Source of the DNA: an uncultured Acidobacteriota bacterium
GTDB taxonomy: Bacteria > Acidobacteriota > Thermoanaerobaculia > Gp7-AA8
Assembly: GCA_963822445.1 (NCBI GenBank)
Contig: CAWGHO010000003.1
Span: 1,696,001 to 1,760,000, forward strand
Direction of reading: 5' to 3'
DNA: 64,000 bases
The notes under the pieces are model-generated. The model was not told the DNA's origin. It saw only the letters and a list, made by a program, of their open reading frames with translations, and made no database searches. The translations under genes and the position numbers were made by a program. Shown one piece after another: positions 3,879 to 36,617 of the stretch; position 1 is the first letter of the stretch; every line of letters begins with the position of its first letter.

Positions 3879-4474
<596 letters not shown>

Positions 4475-4484
4475 CCGCTCGCGC

Positions 4485-4558
4485 GAAATGCAGAATGCAG
4501 AATGCAAAATGCAGAAGGGATCATCTTTCTGCATTCTGCATTTTGCATTCTGCATTTC
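4485..4558. repeat. Inverted heptamer tandem-repeat hairpin (TGCAGAA / TTCTGCA) between convergent genes
   Basis: Arms 4485-4516 and 4527-4558, 32 nt each, nearly perfectly complementary. Confidence 0.92.
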
Positions 4559-12346: not shown

Positions 12347-13561
12347 CTATTCCCAGCGCAGCGCCTCGATCGGGTCGAGCTTCGAAGCCTTGGCCGCGGG
12401 GTAGATTCCGAAGACGATGCCCAGGAGTGCGCAGAAGCTGAACGCGCCGAGGACCGCCCAGAGCGGCGTGTGCACGGCCGGGAACTCGACCCAGCGGCTG
12501 ATGATCAGGCGGGCGATGTTGGCCATCACGAATCCGCCGGCGATTCCCACCAGCCCGCCGAAGCCGGAAAGGACGATGGCCTCGATGAGGAACTGCACGA
12601 GGACGTCCATCCGCCGCGCGCCGATGGATTTGCGGATGCCGATCTCGCGGGTCCGCTCGGTCACGGAGACGAGCATGATGTTCATGATCCCGATACCGCC
12701 GACGAGCAGGGCGATGGCCACGACGCCGCCGAGAATCAGGGTGATCGAGCCGAGGACGCTGGAGAAGATCTTCATCAGCTCTTCCTGGGCCAGGATGCGG
12801 AAGTCGTCCGGTTCCCCTTTCGGGATCCGGTGCCGCGCCCGCAACACCTCCGTGACCTGTTCCTTGGCGAGCTCGAGGTCCGCGCCGTCTTCCATCTGAA
12901 AGGCGAGCACGAGCGTGCGCATGTTCTCGCTGCCGAAGATGACCACGGCCGTGGCGAAGGGGATGAGGATGACGTCGTCCTGGTTGCCGCCGAGGGTCCC
13001 GCCTTTTTTCTCGAGCACGCCGACGACGGTGAAGGTGTCGGTGTTGACCTGAATCAGCTTGCCGATGGGATTGCTGCCCAGCTCGAGCCGCTCGATGACC
13101 TCCACTCCGACGACGCAGACGCGCTTCTTCTGCTCTTCATCGACGGGAGTGAAGAAACGGCCGCGATCGACCCAGTGATTGAGGATGTCCGGATACGACC
13201 GCGCGACCGCGTAGAGCTGCACCGAATGCCGCGCGTCCGCATGCTTGAGCTGCACGCTGGAGATGAAGATCGGCGAGAAATCGCGAATGGCCGTCGTCTG
13301 CCGCCGCACCGCCAGCGCGTCGTCGATGGTGAGCTCCGGCGTCTTGAACGGATTGCGCCGATCGCCCTGCGGAAAGACCTCGATGAACCCCCCGCCGATG
13401 GAGTTGAGATCCCCGGAGATCTTCTTCTGAAACCCCTGAACGATCGACACCACGGCGATGACCGCGGCCACGCCGATCATGACACCCAGGACCGTCAATA
13501 CGCTCCGCATTTTGTTCGCGCGGATGGCGGATAAGGCGATTTTTAGGTTTTCTAGCAACAT
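12347..13561 (-). CDS. MacB/FtsX-type ABC permease
   Basis: NKMRSVLTVLGVMIG; GGIGIMNIMLVSVTERTREIGIRK; P-AA-LDPIEALR. Confidence 0.95.
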   Translation of the reverse strand: MLLENLKIALSAIRANKMRSVLTVLGVMIGVAAVIAVVSIVQGFQKKISGDLNSIGGGFIEVFPQGDRRNPFKTPELTIDDALAVRRQTTAIRDFSPIFISSVQLKHADARHSVQLYAVARSYPDILNHWVDRGRFFTPVDEEQKKRVCVVGVEVIERLELGSNPIGKLIQVNTDTFTVVGVLEKKGGTLGGNQDDVILIPFATAVVIFGSENMRTLVLAFQMEDGADLELAKEQVTEVLRARHRIPKGEPDDFRILAQEELMKIFSSVLGSITLILGGVVAIALLVGGIGIMNIMLVSVTERTREIGIRKSIGARRMDVLVQFLIEAIVLSGFGGLVGIAGGFVMANIARLIISRWVEFPAVHTPLWAVLGAFSFCALLGIVFGIYPAAKASKLDPIEALRWE

Positions 13562-13591
13562 AGGGACGAGGTTCGAGGGACGAGGTACGAG
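13562..13591. repeat. Heptamer arm (AGGKWCG x4) flanking the four-helix-bundle gene
   Basis: agggacg aggttcg agggacg aggtacg ag; abuts the permease ATG. Confidence 0.9.
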
Positions 13592-13594
13592 TGG

Positions 13595-13975
13595 TCAGCG
13601 TTTGGACGGTGGACGCTGCGTTGCGACTTTTGCGCGGAGGCCGCCGATTACCCGGCCCACTTCCTCGGAATTCGAGAGCATCGTTTTGTAGACCGCGTCG
13701 TCGATGTATTCGAGGCGATGCGCGAGGTGAACGTACGTCGCCAACTCCGCGCACGAGCCTTTCGCGATCGAGAGGAACCGATGGAACTCCGCGCGACTCC
13801 CGCGATCGAAGCCTTCGGCGATGTTGGCGGGCATCGAGATCGCGGCGCTGTGCACCTGGTTGCTCAGCGCGAAGTCGCGGCTGAGCGGTCGCTTTCTGGT
13901 CATCCGGTACGCGTCAACAGCGAGATCCATTGCCTTTTGCCACGCGATCAGTTCCTCGAATCGCTGGATCTTCAT
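13595..13975 (-). CDS. Four-helix-bundle protein (23S rRNA IVP family, Avd-like fold)
   Basis: F-EL-AWQKAM, Q-AAIS-PANIAEG and F-RFL-IAKGS-AE are hallmark motifs of the PF05635/TIGR02436-type family. Confidence 0.93.
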   Translation of the reverse strand: MKIQRFEELIAWQKAMDLAVDAYRMTRKRPLSRDFALSNQVHSAAISMPANIAEGFDRGSRAEFHRFLSIAKGSCAELATYVHLAHRLEYIDDAVYKTMLSNSEEVGRVIGGLRAKVATQRPPSKR

Positions 13976-13976
13976 A

Positions 13977-14006
13977 CTCGTCCCTCGTCCCTCGTACCTC
14001 TTACCT
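13977..14006. repeat. Heptamer arm (CTCGTMC x4), inverted partner of 13562-13591
   Basis: ctcgtcc ctcgtcc ctcgtac ctcttac ct; overlaps the ATPase stop codon. Confidence 0.9.
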
Positions 14007-14697
14007 AAACCACCTTGCCATCCCGTAACCGAATGACCCTCGCCGCTTCCTTAGCCACATCATCTTCATGCGTGACCATGATGATCGAGTTGCCGCGGGT
14101 GTGGAGCTCGTGGAAGAGGTCGAGGATTTCGCGGCCGGTCTGGGAGTCGAGGTTGCCGGTCGGTTCGTCGGCGAGGAGGAGGGAGGGCTTGTTCACGAGG
14201 GCGCGGGCGATGGCGACGCGCTGGCGTTGGCCGCCGGAGAGCTCGTTCGGCTGGTGGGACATGCGGTCTTTCAGGCCGACGGCGGTCAGCGCTTCTTCAG
14301 CGAGCTGGCGGCGTTCCACGCGCGGGATCTTCGCGTAGACCAGGGGCAGCTCGACGTTCTGCAGCGCCGTCGTGCGCGCGAGCAAGTTGAAGGTCTGGAA
14401 GACGAAGCCGATCTTCTTGTTGCGGATCGCCGCCAGCTCGTCGTCGTTCAGCGTCTCGACCGGCACTCCGTCGAGCAGGTACTGGCCGGACGACGGCGTG
14501 TCGAGGCAGCCGACCACGTTCATCAGCGTCGACTTGCCCGAGCCCGACGGGCCCATGATCGCGACGTACTCGCCGGGATCGATGGTCAGGTTGATTCCGC
14601 GCAGGGCGAAGATCTGCTGCGGACCGAGGTCGTAGACCCGGGTCAGCTCTTTCATCTCGATCAGGTGGTGGTGCTCGGGCTCAGGAAGCGCGCTCAT
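14005..14697 (-). CDS. ABC transporter ATP-binding protein (MacB/LolD-like)
   Basis: [28 protein letters not shown] and VTHE motifs. Confidence 0.96.
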
Positions 14698-15941
14698 TTG
14701 TCATCCTCGTCTTTGTCGTCTTTGTCTTTCTTCTTCGACGACTTCTTCGTTTCTTTCGTCACTACGATCTTCTCTTCGTCATCCAGCTCGCGGAGCGTGC
14801 GGAACGGCCCGGTGATGACCGGATCGCCGGGCTTCACGCCCGACAGCACCACCACGTGGGTGGCGTCGCTGATCCCGGTCATCACTTCGACCTGCCTGAC
14901 CTTCTCTTTGCCGGCCAGCAGGACGTACTTCTTTTTCGGCTTGTCGTCATCGTCATCGTCGCCCGCTTTCGCACCCGGCACGCGCTCCACGACGGCCTGG
15001 ATCGGGACGACCGTCGCGTTCGGCGCGGTGCTGGTCACGATCGAGACCTGCGAGGTCATGCCCGGGCGCAGACGGTCATCGGCGTTGTCGATGGCCACCT
15101 TCACCTTGAAGTAGCGGATGCCCGAGCCGGCGCCCTGACGGACCGCGGCGGAGCTGCCGATCTCCACGACCCGGCCGCGGTAGTCGCGGTCCGGAATCGC
15201 GTCGACCTTGATCTTCGCCTGCTGATTGATTCGGACGCCGACGACTTCGGTTTCGCCGACCTCGGCCTCGACCAGGATCTGTGACAGGTCGGCGATCACG
15301 GCGATGACCGAGCCAGGGTTGTTCATCGTCCCGGTCACGACCACTTCCCCTTCGTGCGCGTTGAGCTGCACGACTTTGCCGTCGATCGGAGAAACGATGG
15401 TCGTCCGCGAGAGGTCTTCCGCCGCCTGACGCAACCCCGCCTCGGCCTGCGTGACGCCGAGGCGTGCCGCGTCCAGCGCGGCGGTGGCGTTGTCGTGGGC
15501 CATGCGGGCCTGGTCGAACAGCTCCTGGGCCTGAATCCCCTGCTTGCTCAGATTCTGTGCGCGCTGATAGGCGGCGTTCGCGGTTGCCAGCGCGGCCTGC
15601 GCGCGCCGGACTTCCACGCGGCGGCTGGACAACTCCGCACTGAGGCGGTCGCGCTGGCCGACGTAAATGAACTTCTCCAGATCGACCAGCCGCTGGCCGC
15701 GCTTCACCGTGTCGCCTTCGAGGAAATACAGCTTCTCGATCTTGCCGACGATGTGGGCGCTGATGTTGACCTTCACCTTCGGATCGATCTGCCCCGGCGC
15801 GTTGACGACGGCCTCGATGGTTTTCGTGGCGGCGGGCTCGACGTAGACCTTTTCGCCTTTCGGCCCGCCGCCTTTGATGCTCGCCAGGACGATGGCCGCG
15901 ATGACGACCACGGCCCCGGCGATGATCAACCCACGTTTCAC
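14694..15941 (-). CDS. Periplasmic adaptor (MacA/HlyD family)
   Basis: N-terminal TM helix, lipoyl halves (EGDTVKRGQ; SPIDGKV), coiled coil, LRPGMT. Confidence 0.92.
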
Positions 15942-20712: not shown

Positions 20713-20806
20713 GGATTGAGGATTGAGAATTGAGGATTGAGGATGCGCGTGCTCGCGACTGTCGTTTGGTGTTCATCCTCAATCCTCAATCCTCAATTCT
20801 CAATCC
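20713..20806. repeat. Inverted heptamer tandem-repeat hairpin (GGATTGA / TCAATCC)
   Basis: Arms 20713-20745 and 20774-20806, 33 nt each; the right arm contains the OppD-like stop codon. Confidence 0.92.
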
Positions 20807-36581: not shown

Positions 36582-36584
36582 CTC

Positions 36585-36617
36585 CTTCTGCCTTCTGCCT
36601 TCTGCTTTCTGCTTTCG
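36585..36617. repeat. Single heptamer arm (YTTCTGC x4) between mutS2 and dnaG
   Basis: cttctgc cttctgc cttctgc tttctgc tttcg; no partner arm nearby. Confidence 0.85.

Follow-up and report, generated by a model that had tools for sequence, protein, structure and literature searches.

A four-helix-bundle gene cassette framed by inverted heptamer arrays in a MacAB-like efflux operon of an uncultured Acidobacteriota bacterium

Among the heptamer repeats of bacteria are the short tandemly repeated repetitive (STRR) sequences of cyanobacteria. Other examples are the GGGAATC repeats of Xanthomonas and the GGGGAYT repeats of Nostoc, and in Xanthomonas each genome has 70-75 'convergent' inverted heptamer pairs in which the G-rich strand comes first (Rehm et al., 2015; PMC4692102); TAACTGA repeats were described from Beggiatoaceae (MacGregor, 2015; PMC4679880). 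Another kind of element, the intervening sequence (IVS) of 23S rRNA, is represented by that of Coxiella burnetii, which in the parts of Warrier et al. (2016; PMC4990558) drawn on here is given as 428 nt long, with a 28-bp terminal stem that RNase III cuts in the middle and with an open reading frame (ORF) for the protein S23p, just upstream of whose start lie three tandem GACAGAT heptamers in strain-variable number; the same parts report decay of S23p and a homopentameric toroid for XCC0516, its Xanthomonas homologue (2gsc). Here we analyse a gene for a four-helix-bundle (4HB) protein that is enclosed by inverted heptamer arrays and located between the ATPase and permease genes of an efflux operon, in a window of 64 kb (the whole stretch of DNA analysed) of contig CAWGHO010000003.1 from a Gp7-AA8 Acidobacteriota bacterium. 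All positions refer to this window unless another contig is named, and the cassette is read on the - strand.

The element is an IVS-type gene cassette between co-transcribed, formerly adjacent or overlapping genes of a MacAB-like efflux operon. As an initial annotation of the sequence had described, the order on the - strand is ATPase ...GTT TAG GTAAGAGGTACGAGGGACGAGGGACGAGT ATG, 126 codons, TGA CC, ACTCGTACCTCGTCCCTCGAACCTCGTCCCT, and the ATG of the permease (Table 1). The first three bases of the 5' arm are the stop codon TAG of the ATPase gene, the ATG of the 4HB gene stands directly behind this arm and its TGA 2 nt ahead of the 3' arm, and the final base of the 3' arm is the A of the permease ATG. 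A repeat search returned arms of 32 nt with 28 matches (88% complementary) and a spacing of 383 nt, each of period 7, in good agreement with the pairing of about 31 bp with four mismatches proposed at first. Each array consists of about 4.5 heptamers of the unit GAGGKAC, and the cassette has a score of 22 with the arm finder. In the arm pairing, the T of the ATPase TAG (14007) lies opposite the A of the permease ATG (13561), so that the meeting of stop and start at the base of the stem, also claimed in the initial annotation, was confirmed. When the RNA of the region 13540-14030(-) (491 nt) was folded in silico, the arm-arm helix was present both in the minimum free energy structure and in the centroid, with a z score of -3.56 and none of 100 shuffles equally stable. 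Neither within the cassette nor next to it did the - strand show promoter- or terminator-like sites, match counts being the same as in shuffles, although the consensus may not fit this organism. A sub-threshold Rfam match to mir-601 (27.6 vs. 98 bits) was taken as chance and rejected as an identity of the cassette.

Table 1. Coordinates of the cassette and of the neighbouring genes in the window.
Feature	Position	Strand	Basis
5' arm (mRNA strand), G-rich heptamer array, TAGGTAA GAGGTAC GAGGGAC GAGGGAC GAGT	13976..14007	-	inverted repeat and direct repeat of period 7
126-aa four-helix-bundle (4HB) gene, PF05635 / TIGR02436	13595..13975	-	profile matches and PDB relatives
3' arm, C-rich array, ACTC GTACCTC GTCCCTC GAACCTC GTCCCTA	13561..13592	-	inverted repeat, period 7
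ABC transporter ATPase, 230 aa, upstream neighbour	14005..14697	-	PF00005, E 2.1e-35
MacB/FtsX-type permease, 404 aa, downstream neighbour	12347..13561	-	PF12704, E 6e-41; PF02687, E 6.3e-19
HlyD-type membrane-fusion protein	14694..15941	-	PF16576

The 4HB protein matched PF05635 with 116.8 bits (cut-off 33.8; E 6.6e-34) over model positions 1-105 of 106, and TIGR02436 with 110.6 bits (cut-off 24); with both profiles well above cut-off, its first assignment to this family holds. In the PDB it is related to 2gsc_A (E 7.3e-17) and to 2rld_A (E 4.2e-06), both of which have five chains per entry. The models for Avd, the accessory protein of diversity-generating retroelements (DGRs), stayed under cut-off (PF22296, 23.7 vs. 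40 bits; NF033474, 26.4 vs. 80 bits), and no catalytic domain was recognised in the protein by profile search. Orthologues from the same junction are 40-68% identical to it, and the ratio of nonsynonymous to synonymous substitution (dN/dS) of the junction 4HB proteins has a median of 0.18 and a range of 0.05-0.37 (46 of 55 pairs with dS <3, dS being near saturation), which shows purifying selection on the protein. Because of this selection, the initial view of the element as nearly neutral is doubtful.

The history of the junction was followed through a search of 40 relatives for permease orthologues, which yielded 19 loci with both genes. A 4HB cassette occupies seven of these junctions (this locus, G013, G016, G006, G010, G024 and G027, the last belonging to another family and confirmed to hold a 4HB gene with GAGTCAT arms), two have other spacers and 10 are empty, the aligned ends lying 17-45 nt apart, with ATGA or TGATG overlaps in some. 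The empty sites with adjacent ATPase and permease genes for which the initial annotation had suggested comparing orthologous operons do therefore exist. Moreover, the junction was empty at all eight loci whose permease is 48-54% identical and comes from other families of the class. As the orthologous genes are adjacent or overlapping outside the genus, the cassette is an insertion into an ancestrally tight gene pair. No target duplication was seen at the three junctions compared.

In a quick IQ-TREE analysis of 114 proteins, the junction 4HB proteins formed one clade of 12 (SH-aLRT 99), of which 11 are encoded directly behind the ATPase orthologue; nine of these 11 also precede the permease and the other two are at contig ends. 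DNA matches confirmed the synteny and, with G013, the cassette is syntenic in at least 12 congeners. It came into the junction near the base of the genus, and its later history is one of vertical inheritance, loss or involvement in rearrangements. An autonomous mobility of this copy, as first supposed, finds no support, given its synteny and the single clade of its proteins. The initial annotation had also regarded stable synteny across relatives, together with paralogues lacking arms, as evidence against its own proposal: the synteny was found in part, but the paralogues keep their arms. In five congeners (G005, G011, G001, G003 and G020; loci L008, L010, L012, L014 and L019) the permease orthologue is preceded by unrelated genes, the operon being broken exactly at the cassette junction. 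Right ahead of the permease start, G003 has two tandem GGTTGCT hairpins and G020 a hairpin of the 10-mer GTTCCTCGGA. The repeats may mediate rearrangements.

The sequence of the arms has changed along this history. Nine syntenic cassettes with both arms present fall into three arm types (GAGGKAY, AAAGGTR and GTGCTGR), and the left-right pairing score is 15-29.5 within a cassette and 3-10.5 between types, with a random median of 9. The three types are mutually incompatible, each being self-complementary, and the maintenance of the architecture despite replacement of the sequence is the strongest sign that pairing or design matters.

A similar turnover was seen at gene-less sites. Two junctions were compared in this genome and 10 relatives, namely those around a 161-aa gene at 3989-4474, which we take to resemble coaD. 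In the window this gene is flanked by hairpins at 3881-3968 and 4486-4558, one with TTAGTCG/TTAGTGG arms and the other with GAATGCA arms. At the site upstream of it, a hairpin is present in this genome (TTAGTCG), in G003 (AGCTCGC) and in G048 (AGGCTCAR), and seven genomes have a plain spacer of 6-32 nt, while the downstream site shows hairpins of four families across five genomes. The loop of the TTAGTCG hairpin resembles the spacer of G016 at the upstream site, a single case among few sites, which may hint that a loop represents the earlier spacer. Downstream of the orthologue of this gene in G049 (L244), the reading frame enters a GAGTCCT array and ends at a TGA stop within it. To judge from such sequences, arrays can supply or shift a stop codon; as neither 7 nor 8 is divisible by 3, a unit that includes a stop codon will present it in all frames.

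The genome from which the window was taken (three contigs, 94.7% complete) encodes six PF05635 proteins. All six genes lie between inverted tandem arrays, with a different unit for each (TTAGTCG, GAGGKAC at this locus, GAATGCA, GAAGGCA, AAATTGA and the octamer GGGGTTAC), so the flanks of the paralogues, which the initial annotation had suggested tabulating, speak for a common architecture. A count of tandem arrays of ≥24 nt over the whole genome gave 232 with period 7 and 194 with period 8, but 13, 39, 1 and 9 with periods 6, 9, 10 and 11, respectively. Pairing of arrays with a reverse complement within 1.5 kb left 70 of 315 elements solo and 245 paired. The loop lengths of the paired elements are bimodal, mainly 0-60 nt with a second mode of seven elements at 300-400 nt, and after refinement the short-loop elements amounted to 228 gene-less hairpins of the same build as the cassettes.

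The sites of these 228 hairpins were related to the genes predicted by a custom codon-usage caller (4899 genes; rough calls). They lie between co-directional genes in 156 cases, between divergent genes in 40 and between convergent genes in 28, with four inside called genes, and this mix is near the background of 3312, 791 and 793 junctions, respectively. Between co-directional genes, the 5' arm begins at a median of 4 nt past the upstream stop (interquartile range 0-14) and the 3' arm ends at a median of 24.5 nt ahead of the next start, both distances being ≤15 nt in 50 of the 156. Therefore, stop and start often come together at the foot of the stem in this class, and the arrangement is not peculiar to this cassette.

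Further members of the class were noted within the window: an AGTAGGC/GGGCAGT hairpin, a GGATTGA hairpin and a solo CCTTCTG array (1779-1841, 20713-20806 and 36584-36616), the last being C-rich and occupying the whole gap from a TAA stop to the next ATG. Elsewhere in the genome, a second efflux operon is split by a GAAGGCA-armed 4HB cassette (G000:C3:654359-654703), which lies between a 532-aa gene and the 1028-aa gene of a resistance-nodulation-division (RND)-type pump. Other cargo was also found, a 95-aa ABM-domain gene (PF03992, E 2.4e-5) inside GTTGCTGR octamer arms and a 121-aa ORF with no Pfam match inside GAGTRAT-type arms; the arrays enclosing such cargo are located at G000:C3:1661430-1661800 and G000:C2:654246-654700. 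In the operon analysed here, the HlyD-type gene is the first of the efflux unit and overlaps the ATPase start by 4 nt. The 23S genes of this genome (2965 and 2969 nt vs. a model of 2925 positions) carry no large insert. An RNase III-domain gene is present, its match at G000:C3:961366-961748 falling into two adjacent pieces in differing frames, which could be a frameshifted gene or split alignments.

The cassette is a member of a widespread, barely described class of cassettes and gene-less hairpins. PF05635 genes were detected in all 35 genomes of the genus that were searched (two of them unpublished and not used for any conclusion), with one to nine in each. From about 160 matches, 113 loci made up the genus sample (six from this genome, 27 returned automatically and 80 fetched), after exclusion of two loci of unpublished genomes, two situated at contig starts and the remaining matches of lowest score. 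Arms with a score of ≥14 were found around 90 of the 113 genes (69 under a stricter periodicity filter), compared to 2 of 1000 random 310-nt pseudo-genes of this genome used as a control. The period of the 90 armed cassettes is 7 in 64, 8 in 19, 6 in two, 9 in two and 10 in three. An independently drawn sample of 80 loci, taken from named records and with sufficient flank in 78 cases, covered phyla including Acidobacteriota, Pseudomonadota, Bacteroidota, Planctomycetota, Clostridia, Chloroflexota, Patescibacteria and Gemmatimonadota, and revealed arms at 59 of the 78 PF05635 loci, 51 of which have period 7.

The build of the arms sets limits to the mechanism. In the hairpins of this genome, arms have a median length of 31 nt with heptamers (4.43 units, n=115) and of 33 nt with octamers (4.12 units, n=112), and in the cassettes they measure 36, 32, 35, 25 and 25 nt at periods 6, 7, 8, 9 and 10, respectively, corresponding to six down to 2.5 units. 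Hence it is the arm length (about 30 nt) that is conserved, not the number of units. As the length is conserved while the number of units varies, a helix of about 30 bp is favoured over one unit per pentamer subunit, the correspondence that the initial annotation had suggested for the protein and its repeats. A strict code between protein and unit was also rejected, because distant protein clades have identical units (AAGGCAG, CGGTTGT and GGTTGGC) and a single clade has three unit types.

The arms are also polar, as G exceeds C in the 5' arm of 222 of the 228 hairpins, 85 of the 90 genus cassettes and 52 of the 59 cross-phyla cassettes; this G-rich-first polarity is valid on both strands because the element is palindromic. 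Mismatches between the arms are strongly asymmetric, with left G/right T in 115 cases and left A/right C in 111, compared to 16 and 19 for the reverse pairs. The arrays seem to be built as mosaics from a pair of unit variants, distinguished by a single R/Y position, and the order of the variants in one arm seems independent of that in the other. Finally, the loops of hairpins of the same family are unrelated (19 of 15051 loop pairs similar), and copy-and-paste of whole hairpins is ruled out for that reason.

The explanation that we favour, with moderate confidence, is that an IVS-type cassette is tolerated in the operon mRNA through looping-out by the arm helix and probable processing by RNase III, its arms being probably kept up at the DNA level. 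Upon transcription of the operon, the two arms would pair with each other over about 32 bp; the 4HB cistron would be looped out by this stem, at whose base the stop of the ATPase gene and the start of the permease gene would come to lie. This stem would be a likely substrate of RNase III, given its anatomical match to the IVSs of 23S rRNA, and the insert could be tolerated inside an operon because the host RNA would be freed of it by cutting or folding. The complementarity of the arms would probably be kept by array slippage and by template switching or conversion between the arms, and not by selection on RNA pairs. A restored translational coupling across the stem is possible from its geometry. 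In favour of such coupling, the initial annotation had pointed out that the permease has no Shine-Dalgarno (SD) sequence of its own and that the left arm provides GAGG to the 4HB gene. These motifs are as described, with no GGAG, GAGG or AGGA in the 20 nt upstream of the permease ATG and GAGG 7 nt upstream of the 4HB ATG, but the argument is weak in this organism, since SD-like motifs were found before only 1405 of 4896 called genes; they precede 29 of the 90 cassette genes (about background) and 8 of the 53 genes that start ≤15 nt from a 3' arm (crude start calls).

Several observations weigh against this explanation. Cutting by RNase III would sever the ATPase and permease cistrons, not couple them. 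The exact juxtaposition of stop and start is common but not general, as the distances given above for the co-directional hairpins show, and in the syntenic cassettes the distance from the end of the 3' arm to the permease start is 0-20 nt. The orientation of the 4HB gene with respect to its neighbours varies (++ 16, +- 13, -- 9 and -+ 2 among the 40 of 90 cassettes whose flanking genes were callable, by crude gene calls). In addition, G.U mismatches on the transcribed strand were as frequent as A.C mismatches, both in the 90 cassettes (64 vs. 65) and in the 156 co-directional hairpins (131 vs. 130). As G.U is not favoured over A.C, selection on an RNA helix is not visible, and arm complementarity looks either maintained at the DNA level or too young for filtering as RNA.

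The main rival is a system acting at the DNA level, which we regard as a possible but doubtful explanation. It holds that the pentameric 4HB protein binds its cognate arrays, whether in the form of DNA or of a hairpin, and is responsible for their seeding, spread or maintenance, so that cassettes would be the protein-coding form and hairpins the dependent form of one repeat element, loosely like RAYT (the REP-associated tyrosine transposase) and the repetitive extragenic palindromic (REP) sequences, with any effects on mRNA being secondary. The absence of a wobble bias is in line with this proposal, and so are the different unit families present in different species at the same junctions, the breakage of the operon at the cassette junction in five congeners and the hairpins beside the permease in two of them. 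The unit families, moreover, are lineage-specific and have expanded: three copies of AGGGCCG (≤2 mismatches) gave 45-267 matches in seven genomes of the genus, 1-6 in three and none in 25 (the two unpublished genomes included). Among the cassettes fetched, those with AGGGCCG arms were found in four of the seven AGGGCCG-rich genomes and nowhere else, but the remaining three have no known cognate cassette and, because related genomes are not independent, the co-occurrence of units and cassettes may reflect mere descent. In G003, the two hairpins flanking one gene match the units of two cassettes of the same genome (L072 and L045), and in the genome analysed here 116 of the 228 hairpins have units in common with one of the six cassettes, whereas 112 belong to families without a cassette in this 94.7%-complete genome. 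Against an action of the protein on cognate arrays stand also the unrelated loops, by which whole elements are not copied, the occurrence of AAGGCAG, CGGTTGT and GGTTGGC each with distant protein clades, the lack of a recognised catalytic domain and the vertical inheritance of this copy.

A further proposal, which we consider unlikely, sees in PF05635 rings the dedicated trans-acting partners of heptamer and octamer (STRR-type) arrays. The rings would seed, homogenise or re-template G-rich arrays on the DNA at both sides of a segment, forming a self-propagating system free of transposase and of reverse transcriptase (RT), and the cassettes would live in rRNA and operon mRNAs as their arms fold out.

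Less probable again is a module of benefit to the host, in which the stem would act within the operon as an element of processing or stability and determine the ratio of ATPase to permease, while the 4HB protein would be a host-retained RNA-binding regulator. Retention of the cassette at one junction in at least 12 species, with a protein under purifying selection, would be expected of such a module; the conserved stem length and the position of the hairpins just past stop codons, like that of stabilising or processing hairpins, also agree with it. However, the junction is empty in 10 of 19 operons and broken in five congeners, yet the genes persist, the PF05635 family occurs in unrelated contexts (the RND pump operon, and the rRNA of other bacteria), and the hairpins match the background mix of junctions. 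Finally, a retro- or telomerase-like origin, in which an RT and an Avd-like protein would add G-rich units to the 3' ends that flank a break or segment at either side, would account for the constant G-rich-first polarity, for the arbitrary loops and for the weak likeness of the protein to DGR Avd, but is very improbable, because the RT profile PF00078 gave no match in this 94.7%-complete genome, which speaks against RT-dependent synthesis of the arrays, because the Avd models remained below their cut-offs and because the polarity could have other causes, e.g. avoidance of a C-rich arm left exposed in the RNA.

PF05635/TIGR02436 is a very large family without known function, and the heptamer repeats of bacteria lack both an explanation and a protein partner. 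An architecture shared by 4HB genes and heptamer arrays, and common to the 23S IVSs excised by RNase III and to ordinary operons, would merge three puzzles into one testable system. The locus is a good test bed, with its three-gene context, natural empty sites and orthologous cassettes, and its three non-interchangeable arm types form a natural series of compensatory mutations. The mechanism is narrowed by a stem of about 30 bp irrespective of how long the unit is, a G-rich 5' arm in almost all cases, the absence of a wobble bias and the unrelated loops. As these elements mark operon breakpoints, they are also relevant to genome rearrangement.

When compared with known systems, the class is like REP sequences and bacterial interspersed mosaic elements (BIMEs) with RAYT, and like miniature inverted-repeat transposable elements (MITEs), in that abundant intergenic palindromes lie at gene boundaries and a few copies enclose a gene. 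It is unlike them in that only the arms are common to copies, and neither a transposase-like domain nor, at the sites compared, a target duplication was found. With DGR Avd and bAvd the protein shares the four-helix bundle, and its solved IVS-protein relatives have five chains per entry; in contrast to DGR Avd, its scores with the Avd profiles are under cut-off, and no RT match or pair of template and variable repeats was seen in the genome. The arrays agree with convergent heptamers of the type described by Rehm et al. (2015) in being tandem 7-mers of intergenic regions, arranged as inverted pairs whose G-rich strand comes first, and differ from published heptamer repeats in the many coexisting unit families, the short and uniform arms and the protein gene in some loops. 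The PF05635-type family is not mentioned in the texts of PMC4692102 and PMC4679880, and no published link of such arrays to PF05635 outside rRNA was found, although supplements, e.g. the repeat lists of PMC4692102, may hold some.

The closest likeness is to the ORF-bearing IVSs of 23S rRNA. This element differs from them in its location between two protein genes, in an operon mRNA, and not in helix 25 or 45 of 23S rRNA; in addition, its protein is under purifying selection, whereas decay is reported for that of Coxiella. Excision by RNase III, demonstrated for the Coxiella IVS, is predicted here by analogy. As far as the parts of PMC4990558 drawn on here describe the Coxiella IVS, the likening of the two in the initial annotation is well founded in anatomy: both have an S23p/PF05635 ORF of about 120 aa in a total of about 430-450 nt, a stem of about 28-32 bp made by inverted repeats at the two ends, and tandem heptamers located in this stem just upstream of the ORF start.

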